Of a DNA stretch of 64,000 bases, positions 43,537-50,884 are shown piece after piece. The stretch is from Giardia intestinalis (Eukaryota). Position 1 is the stretch's first letter; each line of letters begins with the position of its first letter. A model generated the notes under the pieces. It did no database searches, was not told the origin of the DNA, and saw nothing but the letters and a program-made list of their open reading frames with translations. Location of the stretch: assembly GCA_000002435.2 (NCBI GenBank), contig CM018791.1; one strand, 5' to 3'. The position numbers and the translations under genes were made by a program.

Positions 43537-43959
43537 ATGAGCGCTGTTGCTCCAAGTGGCTCTGAAATGGTCGTCGAGTCTCCGGATGAGCAGAGCCACG
43601 CCAGCGCGTCTTCCTCCTCCGACGACTATACCAGCGGGACGACTACTGAAAGCAACGAAGAGGAATCCGAAGAAGATAATGAGGAAGAAGAGTCTGAAGA
43701 CGAAGACGAAGAGGATGAGTCTGAAGAGGATGAAGATGAAGAGGAAGAGGAAGAGTATGAAGAAGAAGAAGAGGAGGAAGAAGAGGAAGAGGAGGAAGAG
43801 AGCGAAGAAGAGGAGACGTCCGAGGAATCTGAGGAGGAGACTGGGGAGTCTGAGGAGGACGAAGAGGAGACCAGCGAGGACGAGGAGCAGTCGGCGCAGA
43901 GCGCGCTCGGCCGGTTCCTCGCAGAGCACAGCCTTGAAAGCGGGAGCGAGCCGGAGTAA
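43537..43959 (+). CDS. Small highly acidic protein (poly-Glu/Asp/Ser low-complexity)
   Basis: 140-aa ORF behind gtagtaaattttgcATG. About 70% of residues 40-115 are E/D. AGTAAAT overlaps the stop. The coding support is mainly the initiator and the polyA-signal-like motif. The encoded GAA/GAG tract also generates spurious ORFs on both strands. Confidence 0.45.
   Translation: MSAVAPSGSEMVVESPDEQSHASASSSSDDYTSGTTTESNEEESEEDNEEEESEDEDEEDESEEDEDEEEEEEYEEEEEEEEEEEEEESEEEETSEESEEETGESEEDEEETSEDEEQSAQSALGRFLAEHSLESGSEPE
43660..43900. repeat. GAA/GAG-rich purine trinucleotide tract (encodes poly-Glu on the + strand)
   Basis: Visible runs gaagaagaagaggaggaagaagaggaagaggaggaagag. It explains the mirror ORFs 43516..44097(-), 43626..43997(-), 43643..44068(-) and 43547..44011(+). 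Confidence 0.7.
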
Positions 43960-43960
43960 A

Positions 43961-44043
43961 TGCCAGCTGTGGGGTTCGAACCCACGCGGTCTTGCAACCA
44001 ATGGGACTTGAATCCATCGCCTTAACCACTCGGCCAAACTGGC
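43961..44043 (-). tRNA. tRNA-Leu (anticodon CAA), class II with a long variable arm
   Basis: Reverse complement reads GCCAGTT-TG-GCC-GAGTGGTTAA-GGC-G-ATGGA-TTCAAGT-CCCAT-TGGTTGCAAGACCGC-GTGGG-TTCGAAC-CCCAC-AGCTGGC-A. Acceptor 7 bp with one G-U pair. D-arm typical of Leu/Ser tRNAs. T-arm GTGGG/TTCGAAC/CCCAC. U33 and purine37 flank CAA. There is one A31-C39 mismatch. CCA is not encoded. Confidence 0.75.
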
Positions 44044-44119
44044 GCGCCCGCGCACACACACCAGACACGCACTTTCTGGCGTACTCTTATTTTTCACTCT
44101 GTCAGAGATTGTGTGTTTA

Positions 44120-47100
44120 CTACCCGATCAGCGCCAATGCAAGGCTCAGCCGCCTGCGCATCCCCCCGCTGAGCTGACGCGCCTGCCGGTCCAAGACATC
44201 GTAGAGATAGACGAAGGATGCAAGCTTCTCAACGACATTCTTCTCGTCCGCCTTCGAAACGCCGTGTAGACGCGCAAAGAGCGTCAGGTGATCCCGGACG
44301 CTCAGAATGGGAATGTATGCGTCATGCTGAGGACAGAGCCCGATGGATTTGTATATCTCGCTGGGGTCTCGGCGCACATCCCACCCGTTTATGATTACCG
44401 TTCCTTTTGTGGGCTTGATGAGCCCCGTCATCATGGATATGGTCGTGGACTTGCCAGCCCCGTTACTTCCCAGAAACGCAAAGCATGTGCTGCGCGGAAG
44501 GTGGAAACTCACGTCTCGGACTGCCACAAATGCAGGTGGATAAAATTTCTGCAGGTTGCATACAATCACAGGAGTAGTGCTCCTAATTCCATTATACATG
44601 TACTGTCGCTCTGCCAGCACGTCAATGTCCATTTCGGCCTGGCCCGTCCGGACTGCGTAGTCGCGACCGGTGCGCGGAGGGGGCAAAGCCTTCTTCCGAT
44701 GTGTTGGCATAGCATTCAGCTGAACATTGATTGGAGGACGAACGTAAGTGGAGGAGTCAAGGTAAGTTCCATCTGTTTCTTCTTCGATCCCACATCCAAC
44801 CAGGGAACCGGGGCTCGTTTGGCACCGGCACCCTTCAACAGAGTCTGCTTCCAAGGCTGATATGCCAGTGATTGTGGAAACATCGGTGAGCATCGTAGCC
44901 GTGGCTAAGAGTTGGTCGGTGCTTTCAGGAACTGCTTTAGTCAGCACAAGCCGTGTGCTCGCGCTGCCATTTGTAAGCTGCGAATCGCGTGCGATCGACA
45001 CTAAGTCAGCATTGTTAAGGTTAAATGTAGAAGCACCATTGGAAGACTTGCTCCTCTTACAACAACAGGTAAATATGAAGTTCCAAGGAAGAGGCACGCC
45101 GTTAGATTCTCTGGGAATGATGTAATCGAAATATATTGTCAGGAGGAAAAAGATTGTGCCCTCAACCCACATGCCAAGGATAAGCCATCGCATGGGGGAG
45201 TTCATGAAGCTCTTGAAGTCCTGTGCGCTCCAGCCCACAAAACCCAAGATTGCTGCGAAGCTCATCATGGGGGTGAAAAAGTACCACCAGAGAAGGTTTT
45301 CTGTCTGCACCTCTCCTTCTATCATTAAAACAATGGCGAGTACGATAATCAAGATATTTCCGACGAGTGTTGAGAGCTGAGTATTGGGGAAGAACAAGGA
45401 GAAGAGGAACGCCGTTGTGAGTTGTCCGTATGCTCCTGCCGTGAAGACCAGCAGAATCATGCCGAAGTCCATTTTCCTAAGCAGGCTGAGCTTGAAAACA
45501 AAGTAGCCTAGCACCACCATAACGCTATATACCAGCACCGCAAAGCAGAGTTGGTATATGAAGTTAGCGCACCAGTATAGCCAGGTAGGCACGCCGTTTA
45601 GCTTGAACATCTGTCGAAGACCCTGTTGACGGTCCAGAACGACGGGGAACATGTGCATTGGGACCATGCTCATGCATGCAAGGGCTAGCATAATAAGTGC
45701 AAGCATCACCTTCATCTTGTCCTCGCCAGAGGTTATGGGGAAGGTCCAGACCCAGTCCCAGGGCTGTAATCCAAAGCGAATATTGATAGACGTGGCAGGG
45801 CTTGTGTACGAGGCAGCAGGGCTTATACCATAACTTGCGCGTGCAATGGCCTCGACTAATCTGGCGTGCACTTCATTGTGGATGGTTATGGCCCGCGTAT
45901 CCAAAAGCGATGTCTCCTCAATAATAGATGGCGCTTTTGCAGGCGGGAGAGTGATGGATGAATTGACTGATGTTCCGGGCATACTCATTATATCGTTAAT
46001 CCCAAACTCTTTTGCCCGCTGCACGATCGACGTCGTATTAAACCTTAACCGCAGAGTCAAGCGTTTATAAGGATAGTTTCCTAACTTAGCAGGTAAGTAT
46101 GAGTGAATAACGGGTCTGAGTACTTTGATCCCTCCTGTTTCTGAGTACGATTCCGCTGTATCAAACTCCAGAACAGCCAAGGGCACCTTGCTAAGTACGT
46201 AATTATAACACTGTTGTATAGTAGCCAAATCGGTAGGATCGACGTACACTCTCTTGGTAAGGTTGCCACACTCGACAGGCTCGCTGTAGCAACGATCATA
46301 GTACACGGTTCCCTCTGGCCTAGGTATCCCCCCGCTGCGCTGAATGTATAAGAGTTCGTCCAGTAGGGTATCAATTGTGTCATACTTAGAGTATCCATTG
46401 ACAAAGTAAAAGTCGGGCTTTAGCTGAAAGTCGTCCGAGATAGTAGTAGTTGATGTGTACATAGGTACGGCAAGGGGCTTCACAGAGAAGTAGTCAAGGT
46501 AGTTTGTCCCTCCACTTGTAGAAAGATCGGTGAAGAGGCTGTCGAACTTGGTGCTCATGAAGGACGACATGGCCACGCTTACCTGGTTCTTGATCGACGA
46601 ACTTACGGGAAGGCCCATTACTGTGAAGACCTTGTAGTCCACAGAAGAAAACGGAATGGTGGTATTATTGACAGTTAGATTGTAAGAATACACCATTCGA
46701 TGGCCGCGCAAGGCGTCTTGGAGGACAATGGTCTCATCAATTCCGGACCCAAAGCGCCCTGTCTTATCGAAGACATATATCCTTCCTGTACCACCGCGCC
46801 TTTGCATCATGTTACTATAACGAATGCTCTTGGTCCCTAAGTCAGTTCCATTAGGCAAGAGGTCAGGAACCTCTGACTCAGAGATGGTACCTCCTCCAAG
46901 CCAAATGATCGGCTGGGAGTTGACCTTGCCTATGAACCTCTCGCTAGCAGGACAGGCCATTGGCTCCCCAAAGGTATCATAGCCATCGCAGTCCTCTATG
47001 TACCCGAAACCCCCAAAGCTCTTGAGCATGCGGCAAACAGTGCATATGGAATCAGATCGACTCGCTACTCTCTGTGCGAGGGAGTTCAGAAGCCCCATTA

Positions 47101-50100
47101 GCCAGGGAACAAATACGTCAGAGAGGATCCACCCCAAGATAATAAGAAGAACCGGGAGGAAAAACACGGAGAATATCCCCATCTTCGTGGAGGCATCGTA
47201 CCGATACATCTTCGTCAGGAGCGCAGTGAAAACACGCGGCCGGACTCTCCGCGGGTTTAAAATTTCGTTAATCATTTCCGGGGTAAACTTCTCGATGCGA
47301 ATCTCCTCTCCATTTATCAATGTATCATGCGCTTCGGCGTCAGTGTACTTCAGAAGCGCAGGGTCACTCATATCGCTGTCAACACTCACATCAGTAGCAT
47401 GCTGTGGCAACTGTTGGTCCTCCCCGAGGGCGCTTGATCCCTGATTTGGCAGCTTGTTATCGATGTTCGAGGGAGAAGTGTGGTCCAGAGTAGAGGAAAG
47501 GTTTGCAAGTTCCTTTATGTTGACACCCTGAAGAGCATCCTGCTGGCTGGTATACTTATCCATTTGAGAAAAGACGCCTGCTTGGTAGATTTTTCCTAGC
47601 TTAATGAAGACTTCCTCTAGAGTCGTGCCCTCTAGCTGATAATCTGCCACGAGGGGCCCTAATGACCCGAGTCTATTATCCCCAAGGCTCAAAGAGCCAA
47701 CCGAAGGTATGTCACGAACAATCTCCTGGGAGTTTTCATCAAGTGTATGCCTTCCCGTCTTATGTGTCTCCACAAACAGGATAAACCCAGGCAGCGCATA
47801 CTCAGCCATTAAATTGACAGAATATACCAACGATTGGCCTGTTTGATTTATCAGACCAATGCGTGGCTGTGATTTTTCACGTAAAAAGTCAGCTGTGTCC
47901 GTCGTCTTGGTAACATACTCGATTTCTGGATACGATTGCTGCAGCCAGTATTTAACTAGTTCGGACATAACATTCGCTGCCTTTGTTGAAGAGGCTATGA
48001 TGGTGAACTGATAACCACTTCCGTAGAGCCTCTTGAGCTCTAGAGAAGTGCCAGAGGCGATGACCTTTCCACTAGACATGATTGCAATCTCGTCAGATAG
48101 GTAGTCAACCTCTGTCATATCATGAGAAGTCAGCAGGATGCCCGGGGGTGGCCGATGAATTCGCTTAACGTGAAGATCCTTCCCCTTGGCGCTCCCAGTA
48201 ACAACGGGAACATTCATGTGATTGCGGCTTGTCTTCTGGATCGCGCTCCAGACGATTCTCTTAGTTTCGGGGTCAGTCCCTGTTGTGGCTTCATCAAAAA
48301 GGAGCAGCTTGTGGTATCCACACGTGGCGATGGCAATGCAGAGGCGCCGCTGCATGCCGCCAGAGAATTTCTTACACGGCTTGTCACGATATTCGTAAAG
48401 AGCCACTTGTCGCAGGTGTTTCTCAACTAACATAGGTATTTCAAACTCAGGGATGTTGTGAAGTAAGCATACGAGCTTAAGATGCTGAACCGGAGTGAGC
48501 CCGGGCCAAAGTGTTGTGTTGTGCTGGGGGCAGACCCCTATTTTGCGACGTATGTGATTCATCTGATAAAGAATAGAGTAGTCGTCGATCCAGCCGTTAC
48601 CTATGCAGGGATTGCGAGCCGAGAGAGGGGATTCTAAGAGGTTCTTGGGCGGTTTGTCGGGATGCAAAGACCCAATGATGCAATTGATTGACGTCGATTT
48701 CCCAGCCCCGTTTTGGCCAAGAAGGCCAAAGATCTGTCCGTGGCAGATGCGAATTGTAAGCCCCCGGACTGCATAGTGATACTTGCCAACCTTATTCTTG
48801 TCTTCCTTCGACCCACTGCAGGCTTTGCGGACAAACGTTTTCTGCAGGTGGTGTGTAACTAAAACTGTGTTCTTAAGATTGCTAGCTGTCATAGTATGGC
48901 GAAGCACAGACGAGACCTTGGAGTCCAAGGGAAGTAGTGAGCGCAGAACGGCCTCAAACACAGAGCCTGGAACAGGCTGTCGACCTGTGAGGAAGTCAGA
49001 TTCGCCCTTCTGTCGTCTAGCTTTCCTGAAGCAAACGCAGCAGAGGCTCTCAGTCCCGTCAGGCTGCTGTGCCGTTGCACGGAAGGTATGCGGAGCACGT
49101 TCCAGCACGTCTCCAGTAGCGTCCACGAGTGGAAGATACTCGTCATCCAGGCTATAATCCACTGTGTGTGCGTTGGTTATACCAGCCTTCTTATATGCGT
49201 CACGCTTGGCTAAACGTCGACGATAGCGGCTTTCACGATCATCCAGTATGCTGCTGAGAGAGTACCCTTCACCAGATGTACTCCAATAGTCCTTTGTAAA
49301 GAGCTGCCATGGTTTTCTGCAGAGGCTTGAGTGACTCGGAACGGCCTCAGAGACAAACCACGTGATCAGGAAGTACAGGATAGTGTCCAGCAGCATAAAC
49401 ACAAGATAAACTACCGGTGGAGGAGCCCTGTATGTGCAAATTGATTGTTTATCGACTGGCTGATTGAGGCATGGGGACGACTCACCGCGAGTGAACCAGG
49501 TTGAAAACGTCCACGGGTTCTTCGGAGAAACCAGCTGCATCTCAAAGGTTCTCGGATTGGCATCGGAGGTGGGCATAGCGGTCTCAACCATCTGTAGAGT
49601 TGTCTGAATAATGGGGGTAAAGGGAAACAGAAGTTGAAGAAGAAATGCCCCAAACTGGTTTATGAATGTGGGATCATAGATTCTCTCAGGGGTTGTCATA
49701 GTGAAGACCATTGTCTCAACAAACGACCCGGCGACCATTACAAAACCAATGGACATCCCTAGCTTAATAGTACCAAGAAAAGAACTGAAGAAGAGCCCAA
49801 ACATAGTTATCGTCGCCGCAGCCATAATATTGAAAACTAGAAATGATACAGGGTCAATCCAAGGATATACGTCTGTTCCTCCAGGCATCATATATGCAAT
49901 GATGAAATAAGGAAGCCAGGTTATCATGAAAATGAGCAACTGGAATGAGAATTGGGCGAGAATGTATATGCAATCGTTAACGCCCATGAGACGGAGAGAC
50001 TCGAACCTGCCTGAATCCTTCTCTGCAATAGAATTGCTCAGGGAGAGAAGAAACTGCATTAGAAAGACGGTAATTACGAAGAACTTGCTCATAAACTCAT

Positions 50101-50884
50101 CTGGAAGACGAGGATCATCGTCACGACCGAAAAACGGCAGCTGAGTCAATCGCGGATTGAAGTCCACGCCTATTCCTTCTGAGACAAGAAGGATAGCTCG
50201 GCCCAGCGCCATCTGAACTCGAAGAGGCACCGTTGCTGCCATGCCACGTGATGCAGACATGGAAACCTGGTCCCGCAGGTAGAAGGCATAGAAATTTGGA
50301 AATGCAAGCAGAGTCTGGTTATAGTTGATCAGGATAGACAGGTCACTGAGGATTTCCTTGTCGGATGAGGGAACTGTTTGTCCACCAGAGGTGCCACTGC
50401 CCTGCTTCTCAAACGGAGCATCGAAGCCAATCATAAAAGTAAAGTGTTTAGGATCTTGCCGCAGGGTGTTCTCTGCTTCGACCCTGGTGCTGAAGCCCTG
50501 GAGGTCAGTGTCAAAATCCAGCCCCGACTGCTCGGCCACTTTCTTCATCACTTTTCTCACGTATGGATTATCTGGGTAGAAGCCTAGAGTCTTGCAATTG
50601 CGTGTCTGATCAGGAATTAACGTCCCGAAGCCATAGCGGCCGTTGGCATCGTCAAGGACAAAGCACTTGGGCACCCTCATGTCCTCGTCTGGCCAGATAG
50701 TAGGTTTGAGATTATCAGATGATTGATAGTAGGCAACCAGAGGATTTAAGTAGAGTACAAGCACAAGGATCAGAGGCAAAGCAAAGCGTAGGAAAAGTAT
50801 CAGCCAGCCCCCCTGGATCATGTCCACATATTGCTTGAAGATGATGGCCCTGTATTGCGACGTGTATAAAGAGCGCGTCCTCAT
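44120..50884 (-). CDS. ABC transporter, ABCA-like full transporter (TMD-NBD-TMD-NBD) with NBD2 truncated after the signature motif
   Basis: NBD1 is complete: GLLGQNGAGKSTS (Walker A), FSGGMQRRLCIAIA (signature), LLLFDEATTGTDP (Walker B), TSHDM (H-loop). NBD2 has FLGSNGAGKSTT and LSGGMRRRLSLALALIG, then a stop. No Walker B, D-loop or H-loop follows. ATG behind ggtttaaaaaatttgtcggcATG. Confidence 0.9.
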   Translation of the reverse strand: MRTRSLYTSQYRAIIFKQYVDMIQGGWLILFLRFALPLILVLVLYLNPLVAYYQSSDNLKPTIWPDEDMRVPKCFVLDDANGRYGFGTLIPDQTRNCKTLGFYPDNPYVRKVMKKVAEQSGLDFDTDLQGFSTRVEAENTLRQDPKHFTFMIGFDAPFEKQGSGTSGGQTVPSSDKEILSDLSILINYNQTLLAFPNFYAFYLRDQVSMSASRGMAATVPLRVQMALGRAILLVSEGIGVDFNPRLTQLPFFGRDDDPRLPDEFMSKFFVITVFLMQFLLSLSNSIAEKDSGRFESLRLMGVNDCIYILAQFSFQLLIFMITWLPYFIIAYMMPGGTDVYPWIDPVSFLVFNIMAAATITMFGLFFSSFLGTIKLGMSIGFVMVAGSFVETMVFTMTTPERIYDPTFINQFGAFLLQLLFPFTPIIQTTLQMVETAMPTSDANPRTFEMQLVSPKNPWTFSTWFTRGESSPCLNQPVDKQSICTYRAPPPVVYLVFMLLDTILYFLITWFVSEAVPSHSSLCRKPWQLFTKDYWSTSGEGYSLSSILDDRESRYRRRLAKRDAYKKAGITNAHTVDYSLDDEYLPLVDATGDVLERAPHTFRATAQQPDGTESLCCVCFRKARRQKGESDFLTGRQPVPGSVFEAVLRSLLPLDSKVSSVLRHTMTASNLKNTVLVTHHLQKTFVRKACSGSKEDKNKVGKYHYAVRGLTIRICHGQIFGLLGQNGAGKSTSINCIIGSLHPDKPPKNLLESPLSARNPCIGNGWIDDYSILYQMNHIRRKIGVCPQHNTTLWPGLTPVQHLKLVCLLHNIPEFEIPMLVEKHLRQVALYEYRDKPCKKFSGGMQRRLCIAIATCGYHKLLLFDEATTGTDPETKRIVWSAIQKTSRNHMNVPVVTGSAKGKDLHVKRIHRPPPGILLTSHDMTEVDYLSDEIAIMSSGKVIASGTSLELKRLYGSGYQFTIIASSTKAANVMSELVKYWLQQSYPEIEYVTKTTDTADFLREKSQPRIGLINQTGQSLVYSVNLMAEYALPGFILFVETHKTGRHTLDENSQEIVRDIPSVGSLSLGDNRLGSLGPLVADYQLEGTTLEEVFIKLGKIYQAGVFSQMDKYTSQQDALQGVNIKELANLSSTLDHTSPSNIDNKLPNQGSSALGEDQQLPQHATDVSVDSDMSDPALLKYTDAEAHDTLINGEEIRIEKFTPEMINEILNPRRVRPRVFTALLTKMYRYDASTKMGIFSVFFLPVLLIILGWILSDVFVPWLMGLLNSLAQRVASRSDSICTVCRMLKSFGGFGYIEDCDGYDTFGEPMACPASERFIGKVNSQPIIWLGGGTISESEVPDLLPNGTDLGTKSIRYSNMMQRRGGTGRIYVFDKTGRFGSGIDETIVLQDALRGHRMVYSYNLTVNNTTIPFSSVDYKVFTVMGLPVSSSIKNQVSVAMSSFMSTKFDSLFTDLSTSGGTNYLDYFSVKPLAVPMYTSTTTISDDFQLKPDFYFVNGYSKYDTIDTLLDELLYIQRSGGIPRPEGTVYYDRCYSEPVECGNLTKRVYVDPTDLATIQQCYNYVLSKVPLAVLEFDTAESYSETGGIKVLRPVIHSYLPAKLGNYPYKRLTLRLRFNTTSIVQRAKEFGINDIMSMPGTSVNSSITLPPAKAPSIIEETSLLDTRAITIHNEVHARLVEAIARASYGISPAASYTSPATSINIRFGLQPWDWVWTFPITSGEDKMKVMLALIMLALACMSMVPMHMFPVVLDRQQGLRQMFKLNGVPTWLYWCANFIYQLCFAVLVYSVMVVLGYFVFKLSLLRKMDFGMILLVFTAGAYGQLTTAFLFSLFFPNTQLSTLVGNILIIVLAIVLMIEGEVQTENLLWWYFFTPMMSFAAILGFVGWSAQDFKSFMNSPMRWLILGMWVEGTIFFLLTIYFDYIIPRESNGVPLPWNFIFTCCCKRSKSSNGASTFNLNNADLVSIARDSQLTNGSASTRLVLTKAVPESTDQLLATATMLTDVSTITGISALEADSVEGCRCQTSPGSLVGCGIEEETDGTYLDSSTYVRPPINVQLNAMPTHRKKALPPPRTGRDYAVRTGQAEMDIDVLAERQYMYNGIRSTTPVIVCNLQKFYPPAFVAVRDVSFHLPRSTCFAFLGSNGAGKSTTISMMTGLIKPTKGTVIINGWDVRRDPSEIYKSIGLCPQHDAYIPILSVRDHLTLFARLHGVSKADEKNVVEKLASFVYLYDVLDRQARQLSGGMRRRLSLALALIG

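Follow-up and report, generated by a model that had tools for sequence, protein, structure and literature searches.

A putative ATPase domain divided between two genes in an ABCA-type transporter of Giardia and other diplomonads

Introduction

A 64,000-nucleotide (nt) stretch of Giardia intestinalis (G. duodenalis) DNA, taken from contig CM018791.1 of assembly GCA_000002435.2 and referred to here in its full length as the window, carries on its minus strand the gene GL50803_16592, which encodes an ABCA-type ATP-binding cassette (ABC) transporter whose second nucleotide-binding domain (NBD2) breaks off just past its signature motif. We propose that this end marks an ancient gene fission inside the ABC nucleotide-binding domain, that the distal part of NBD2 is now encoded by an unlinked gene for a protein of ~180 amino acids (aa), and that NBD2 is rebuilt from the two polypeptides. 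We put the probability of this reading at roughly 0.7, and give the same odds to the assembly of the two proteins into a working NBD2.

Results

The open reading frame (ORF) of the large-subunit gene spans 44120..50884 on the minus strand, including its TAG stop, and its 2254-aa product is 100% identical to an NCBI Giardia duodenalis protein; its assignment to GL50803_16592 was made through a published ortholog table (below) and a 2254-aa entry in proteome tables. The domain order is transmembrane and extracellular domains 1 (TMD1/ECD1), NBD1, regulatory domain R1, TMD2/ECD2 and the N-terminal ~60% of NBD2. Pfam finds two stretches of ABC2_membrane_3 and two of ABC_tran, so that type-V TMDs are each followed by an ABC ATPase domain within one polypeptide, as in a full ABCA transporter. 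NBD1 (47990..48817) is complete, as the initial annotation had stated, with Walker A GQNGAGKST (aa 723-731), a Q-loop, the signature FSGGMQRRL, Walker B LLLFDEATTG (aa 860-869) and the H-loop LTSHDM. NBD2 is represented by a stub (aa 2104-2254; 44123..44575, minus strand) that holds Walker A GSNGAGKST (aa 2139-2147; 44444-44470), the Q-loop LCPQHD (44321-44338) and the signature LSGGMRRRL (44147-44173). Its last residue, Gly2254 (44123-44125), is followed by tandem stop codons, TAG-TAA (44117..44122, with TAG at 44120-44122), which fall in the loop before the Walker B strand; the ORF ends ...LSGGMRRRLSLALALIG-TAG-TAA, the final residues being ...LALALIG and the coding 3′ end reading ...CTGATCGG(G).

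Neither the ORF, nor Pfam, nor an alignment to human ABCA7 revealed a Walker B motif, D-loop, H-loop or R2 on the stub chain, which bears out the earlier observation that NBD2 stops after its signature and means that this chain lacks the complete NBD2-R2 of an ABCA protein. The second ABC_tran match spans only positions 2-124 of the 137 in the profile and runs up to the last residue, and the last 200 residues align to ABCA7 1752-1942 with the alignment ending at the query's final residue; by comparison with solved structures, ABCA7 continues for ~200 residues more. Kinship to the ABCA class is clear, the stub matching ABCA7, ABCA3, ABCA4 and ABCA1 with E values of 1e-53 to 1e-55 and other ABC classes with 1e-24 or weaker. 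The initial annotation had put the deficit at ~60-90 aa and held that it could not be encoded downstream. Nothing was indeed found downstream in any of six frames, but the deficit is really ~180 aa, R2 being absent as well.

The heptamer AGTAAAC (44115..44121) overlaps the stop and matches the Giardia polyadenylation consensus AGTPuAAPy (PMC9966554), and a second poly(A)-like motif, AGTGAA (44093-44098), lies 21 nt further on. Such a motif is found near 5 of the 23 long-ORF stops in the window against 0.011 expected per site, the strict motif being ~20-fold enriched at ORF ends. The large subunit has been seen with 13-16 peptides in G. duodenalis proteomes, and GL50803_16592 is reported to be up-regulated in two metronidazole-resistant lines (PMC5913674 supplement); its detection as a protein excludes a pseudogene.

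The position of the stop is conserved well beyond this genome. The end ...ALIG* is common to G. duodenalis assemblage A, assemblage B (from two independent assemblies) and a third lineage (from a Logan assembly), and to G. muris, whose protein shows 42% identity overall; the independent assemblies GCA_000182405.1 and GCA_000498735.1 share the same end point. At this shared site G. duodenalis has TAG-TAA and G. muris TGA, and a DNA alignment shows the sequences further downstream to be unrelated. Wider orthologs, identified by an exhaustive profile search and source look-up, extend the pattern. The Hexamita inflata protein ends at the same residue as in Giardia (...AIIG-TGA; ...LSGGMRRRLSLALAIIG) and that of Spironucleus salmonicida one residue earlier (...IGMM-TGA; ...LSGGMRRRMNLAIGMM), TGA being the sole stop codon in the genetic code of both genera, and a metagenomic fragment likewise ends ...SLIG. 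Both homologs from Kipferlia bialata, a free-living fornicate, run on through the site (...ALIG|APPIVVLDEPSTGLDP...LLTTHS..., then ~100 more residues) and have an intact NBD2. Since Hexamita and Giardia stop at this point, and Spironucleus one residue before it, while Kipferlia reads on, the truncation is, on the sequences compared, a shared ancient diplomonad character that is older than the genus Giardia, and we regard the stop, with near certainty, as both genuine and old.

The stub is also the best-conserved segment of the protein. Its identity exceeds that of NBD1 in comparisons with assemblage B (99% versus 95%), with G. muris (75% versus 67%) and with Kipferlia (62% versus 48%), and, judged by this constraint, the strongest on any segment, the stub is functional.

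The initial annotation had also offered an assembly or indel artefact, or truncation of the gene by the tRNA or an adjacent acidic-gene region, as explanations of the early stop. It had correctly placed a tRNA-Leu gene (43961..44043, confirmed here with ARAGORN) 76 nt from the stop, and this proximity, together with a downstream synteny that differs between G. duodenalis and G. muris, might suggest recent damage by an insertion. An artefact fails, however, because the same stop recurs in independent assemblies and distant genera, the Logan assembly included, and truncation by the tRNA fails because the truncation is older than the genus Giardia. No tRNA lies downstream of the G. muris ortholog, where a convergent Pecanex-like gene is found 36 nt away; orthologs from other Giardia isolates stop at the same residue, with no intact Walker B in a continuous ORF; and a stub kept at 99% identity between assemblages A and B, in a protein detected by mass spectrometry, is not what error or recent damage would leave. 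We give these explanations practically no chance.

We searched for the missing half of NBD2 at several levels. Six-frame phmmer searches with NBD C-terminal halves as query matched only NBD1 in the window and in the 10-kb flanks on either side of five orthologous loci, genetic code 6 being used for the flanks in Hexamita and Spironucleus. An 81-aa ORF located 23 nt downstream of the Spironucleus ABC gene was considered as the missing half and proved to encode an unrelated zinc-finger-like protein. The matches to a 103-aa Kipferlia probe were all exon fragments, from plant and other ABCA genes; judged by the lengths of the proteins matched in this and other searches, the word-indexed protein search appears to return only proteins of ~0.55-1.76 times the query length. 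A 191-aa probe made from the Kipferlia C-terminal halves and run against a collection of 5.8 billion proteins was successful, and its top two matches are short stand-alone proteins beginning at Walker B.

The first of these matches, P0291 (180 aa), starts MDPQRVIFLDEPTTGLDPVTKRAVW...LTTHSMEEADALAQRIGIM... and falls in the same 90%-identity cluster as the G. muris protein TNJ28095.1, to which it is therefore at least 90% identical; the second is a 251-aa Hexamita inflata 'ABC_transporter family protein' with no Pfam domain on record. The G. muris gene, GMRT_15159, encodes a 180-aa 'ABC transporter family protein' that starts M-DPQRVIFLDEPTTGLDP. Its N-terminus, M-DPQRVIFLDEP, takes up the sequence exactly one residue past the last glycine of the stub, and an ATG stands directly before DPQRVIFLDEP in both G. 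muris and a close relative. GMRT_15159 is located on CM016926.1, with a DEAH helicase gene on one side and the V-ATPase a subunit gene on the other, the stop of the latter lying 5 nt ahead of the GMRT_15159 ATG; the large-subunit gene is on CM016925.1. Each piece is thus a gene of its own, with its own stop or start at the junction, as separately encoded subunits would be; the start of the Hexamita small gene is uncertain.

A counterpart in G. duodenalis is provided by the ortholog and synteny table of Xu et al. 2020 (PMC7641422, supplement 2), which pairs GMRT_15159 with GL50803_12820 (180/178 aa, 'ABC transporter family protein') and GMRT_10243 with the window gene, GL50803_16592 (2039/2255 aa). 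GL50803_12820, like its G. muris counterpart, lies between the helicase and V-ATPase a genes (GL50803_15930 and GL50803_18470), and expression values are given for GMRT_15159. We are highly confident that in Giardia the missing half has a gene of its own, which is shown directly in G. muris and by way of the published table in G. duodenalis. The suggestion that the remaining segment might lie behind an unrecognised intron was right in that the segment exists elsewhere in the genome; it is found there as a separate gene with its own ATG and not as an exon. A metagenome scan with the G. muris small subunit returned 80 loci of ABCA genes from other eukaryotes, ~35-45% identical, and none from Giardia.

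The two pieces are contiguous. The small protein aligns to ABCA7 1945-2099 and ABCA3 1555-1719, and the stub alignment stops at ABCA7 1942. When the G. muris stub and small protein were joined in silico, Pfam returned one uninterrupted ABC_tran match covering positions 2-137 of 137 and an AAA_21 match across the junction; taken separately, the stub matches ABC_tran over positions 2-124 and the small protein has no ABC_tran match. At domain level the small protein scores best against the Hexamita small protein (242 bits), followed by Kipferlia P0019 over residues 1983-2160, which comprise its NBD2 C-terminal half and R2 (149 bits); the remainder score at most 120 bits. The large subunit, too, has P0019 as its best match outside the diplomonads, and since the same Kipferlia gene is the closest intact relative of each piece, both go back to a single ancestral ABCA gene. 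The AlphaFold model obtained for P0291 (predicted local distance difference test score, 91.6) superposes on ABCA1, ABCA3, ABCA4 and ABCA7 over 163-170 columns with template modelling (TM) scores of 0.72-0.77, the superposed region being the NBD C-terminal half and the regulatory domain. The small protein has no Walker A or signature of its own; its Walker B (FLDEP), D-loop (TGLD) and H-loop (TTHS) are all canonical and, together with the model, make it look functional.

Giardia is the best-known example of split genes whose pieces, encoded at distant loci, are joined by spliceosomal trans-splicing (PMC5224939; PMC10711314), and the two loci could be transcribed apart and joined in trans into one mRNA for one full-length ABCA protein, as occurs for HSP90, dynein heavy chains and the p68 helicase. 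The junction is seamless at the protein level, and the Hexamita small gene has no ATG at the boundary, as joining of RNAs would allow. When we looked for the hallmarks of Giardia trans-introns listed by Roy 2017 (PMC5224939), however, all four that we tested were absent. The donor GTATGT(T) is absent from the 225 nt that follow Gly2254 in the window and from the ~290 nt past the G. muris stop. The acceptor CTRACACACAG (CT[AG]ACACACAG) is missing directly before the G. muris small gene and has no window match near the ABC gene; the best acceptor-like sequence upstream of the G. muris small gene, CGGATACACAG, has 2 mismatches and overlaps the V-ATPase a coding end ~14 nt before the ATG, off the junction. 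The cleavage motif TCCTTTACTCAA is not found with up to 3 mismatches in either 3′ flank, and its 3 matches window-wide, against 5.4 expected by chance, include none near the ABC gene. Complementarity between the 3′ flank of the first piece and the 5′ flank of the second in G. muris reaches 9 nt at its longest, a length attained by 18% of shuffles.

Other features of the junction also argue against joining in trans. The sequence after the codon for Gly2254 is GTAGTAAAC in G. duodenalis and that after the equivalent codon in G. muris is ATGATGTTC, so that the two species share no donor, and because the upstream stop ends 5 nt before the ATG, there is no room for an intron half ahead of the G. 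muris small gene. The boundary itself coincides exactly with an in-frame stop that is conserved and, in G. muris, with an ATG. The trans-introns recovered by transcriptome-wide screens number just five, and none lies in an ABC gene (PMC5224939; PMC10711314); motif mining in G. muris found no further ones. Trans-splicing is left with a slim chance. Separate translation followed by assembly is favored, since the hallmarks of trans-splicing are absent, the stop overlaps a poly(A) signal, and a stop and a start are present at the junction.

Two further routes across the stop were considered and rejected. Readthrough or frameshifting would have to contend with the tandem TAG-TAA, with the tRNA gene after 76 nt and, in G. 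muris, with a convergent gene 36 nt away. Splicing of a short cis-intron placed just after the stop (GTAGTAAAC...GACAG|AGT) would meet TAA within four codons. Elsewhere in G. muris, a 417-aa stand-alone gene (locus L001, 333-1587, minus strand) contains only AAA_lid_11 and Dynein_C and is a C-terminal dynein heavy chain fragment, another large Giardia protein encoded in pieces.

Discussion

In the mechanism that we propose, GL50803_16592 would supply a membrane-embedded large subunit containing a complete NBD1 together with the Walker A motif, Q-loop, helical subdomain and signature helix of NBD2. Its translation would end at a true stop overlapping a poly(A) signal, in the surface loop that immediately precedes the Walker B strand, and the rest of NBD2, comprising the Walker B Asp-Glu pair, the D-loop, the H-loop and C-terminal R2, would come from the unlinked ~180-aa gene. 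The two polypeptides are most likely translated independently. The soluble small subunit would then dock on the stub and complete its RecA-like beta-sheet, with contacts between R1 of the large subunit and R2 of the small one probably adding affinity, and with docking ATP site 2 would regain its catalytic competence. We infer the physical association of the parts, the hydrolysis of ATP at the rebuilt site and whatever regulatory part the small subunit may play.

The principal alternative at the protein level is that the stub is a lone, permanently non-hydrolytic half-domain that donates its signature to site 1, the small protein being unrelated to it and serving another partner or persisting as a relic. 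Many ABC transporters, including CFTR, TAP, MRP1 and Pdr5, work with one degenerate site, which counts in favor of such an arrangement, and in these proteins, as in the diplomonad transporter, the two ATP sites are differently built and for one of them the canonical catalytic set is missing from one polypeptide. The Walker A of the Hexamita stub (P0021), GPNGAAKTT, departs slightly from the consensus GxxGxGK[ST], whose last Gly it replaces with Ala; in Giardia, Spironucleus and Kipferlia the motif is canonical. The degenerate-site transporters, however, retain a whole NBD fold in which catalytic residues are substituted, whereas the diplomonad residues are canonical but reside on another polypeptide. 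From what is known of the ABC fold, a stub without the Walker B and H-loop strands at the center of its RecA-like core is unlikely to fold by itself, and a partner would be structurally required. Walker A and the Q-loop, useless to a pure signature donor, are invariant in Giardia, and the small protein, which keeps all the catalytic residues and has neither Walker A nor signature, is the ortholog of exactly the segment that is missing. The only other ABC gene near the small gene in G. muris, GMRT_15155 (ortholog GL50803_16605; locus L009, 14936-17404), lies 4.4 kb away and encodes an 822-aa ABCA-like half transporter (TMD-NBD-R); we rejected it as an alternative partner for the small subunit, its NBD being complete and in need of no complementing fragment. 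A lone stub has a small chance of being correct. The asymmetric transporter with a non-hydrolytic site 2 that the initial annotation had envisaged is upheld only in that the short ORF is genuine; because the Walker B Asp-Glu, D-loop and H-loop on the separate small protein are canonical, site 2 is more likely to be complete and hydrolytic once assembled.

Several points weigh against a two-subunit NBD2. The identity of GL50803_12820 in G. duodenalis rests on the ortholog table, length, annotation and synteny, and the gene was not found among the entries listed in the G. duodenalis proteome tables. A small-subunit gene was not recovered for Spironucleus. In Hexamita no ATG stands close to the Walker B of the small gene; the annotated ORF starts 73 codons further upstream, in an AT-rich extension with several TAA and TAG codons that is readable only because these encode Gln (locus L008, 10001-10220), and RNA-level joining or an intron is possible in the Hexamita lineage. 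Mutual binding of the two proteins is predicted from how they complement each other, and in both Kipferlia paralogs the fission point falls within an exon, which gives no clue to how the gene came apart. As for the Hexamita start itself, a 3′ splice site may lie just upstream (…ACAATTTATAG|CGT), and the start may be mis-annotated or involve an intron.

An intron-mediated origin of the fission was considered and found no support. Kipferlia P0019 is a single exon across the site, and in P0020 the exon covering aa 2211-2232 spans the fission point, the nearest introns being ~10 aa upstream and ~12 aa downstream. The P0020 locus (L091, 23400-25400) contains, among its signature-to-H-loop exons, 893 N and near-duplicate copies of two exons (RRADALSGGMRRR, TIDKAKEHRVLLLTTHN), and the gene model there rests on a poorly assembled stretch.

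In its domain order, TMD1/ECD1-NBD1-R1-TMD2/ECD2-NBD2-R2 with ABC2_membrane_3 TMDs, the reconstructed transporter resembles human ABCA1, ABCA3, ABCA4 and ABCA7, and ABCA proteins are the best matches of the stub and the small protein by sequence and of the small protein also by fold. In all solved ABCA proteins and in Kipferlia, NBD2-R2 is continuous with the transporter; the diplomonad chain, in contrast, breaks off after the signature helix and before the Walker B strand, and what follows forms a separate gene. A parallel can also be drawn with the trans-spliced split genes of Giardia, where in the same organisms one ancestral gene lies in pieces at distant loci and the split is kept in both G. 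duodenalis and G. muris. Those genes carry GTATGT/CTRACACACAG sites, complementary intron halves and the TCCTTTACTCAA motif, whereas none of these is present at the ABC pieces, which have a stop and an ATG at the junction instead.

The nearest functional analogies are the ABC heads of SMC and Rad50 proteins and experimentally severed CFTR, in which an ABC ATPase domain or transporter is assembled from two non-contiguous segments, as we suggest from sequence for the diplomonad protein. The halves of SMC/Rad50 heads are on one chain and the break falls before the signature motif, whereas the diplomonad split is between two genes. Severed CFTR, for which the term 'split CFTR' appears in PMC2234483, was cut artificially and between domains; the diplomonad split is natural and lies inside the NBD core. 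The literature that we searched contains no description of a split ABC NBD, and neither GL50803_12820 nor GL50803_16592 is named in a main text; databases label both genes 'ABC transporter family protein'.

We consider it somewhat more probable than an even chance that diplomonads have kept a natural split NBD since before Giardia, Hexamita and Spironucleus diverged, in which a soluble subunit of ~20 kDa must dock on the membrane-bound ABCA stub to form ATP site 2. If so, it would be, as far as the literature searched reaches, the first natural ABC ATPase domain encoded by two genes and cut inside its catalytic core, a case of natural fragment complementation in which the catalytic core of an NBD is supplied in trans. 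Such an arrangement would offer a handle for dissecting the contribution of site 2 in an ABCA transporter, and the small subunit, through its supply or its docking, could switch the transporter on and off. It would also add a gene split at the protein level to a genome known for trans-spliced split genes. GL50803_16592 and GL50803_12820 would then be read as two subunits of one machine and not as a 'truncated' transporter and an orphan fragment, and since the former is reported to be up-regulated in two metronidazole-resistant lines, the true subunit composition matters for functional or drug-related work. The small subunit, having no Pfam ABC_tran match, is easily missed, which is a warning for annotation pipelines.

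Variation in NBD1 was noted in assemblage B. Both assemblies (L002 and L003) read LLLFNEATTG (AAT) at the NBD1 Walker B, where the window (48278-48307) and L004 read LLLFDEATTG (GAT/GAC), the Mg-binding Asp of site 1 being replaced by Asn. If this is real, site 1 may be weakened in assemblage B, and the split site 2 would be more important there.

The 76-nt spacer between the stop and the tRNA gene (44044..44119, minus strand) contains no coding continuation, splice-donor or cleavage motif. The tRNA-Leu(CAA) gene, on the same strand as the ABC gene, keeps its position among G. duodenalis lineages and is a neighbor only, with no part in the mechanism. One nucleotide before it ends a 140-aa ORF (43537-43959, plus strand) that is nearly all Glu/Asp-rich and of low complexity; at its position in other G. 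duodenalis lineages, gene callers place a 136-139-aa gene with no Pfam match. In Spironucleus salmonicida, the three genes downstream of the ABC gene (81 aa, a dynein light chain of 89 aa, and 225 aa) are repeated with a SpoU methylase gene in inverted order ~5 kb off, and this inverted repeat (locus L006, 14880-16324 and 21785-23229) flanks a serpin gene as a palindromic segmental duplication.

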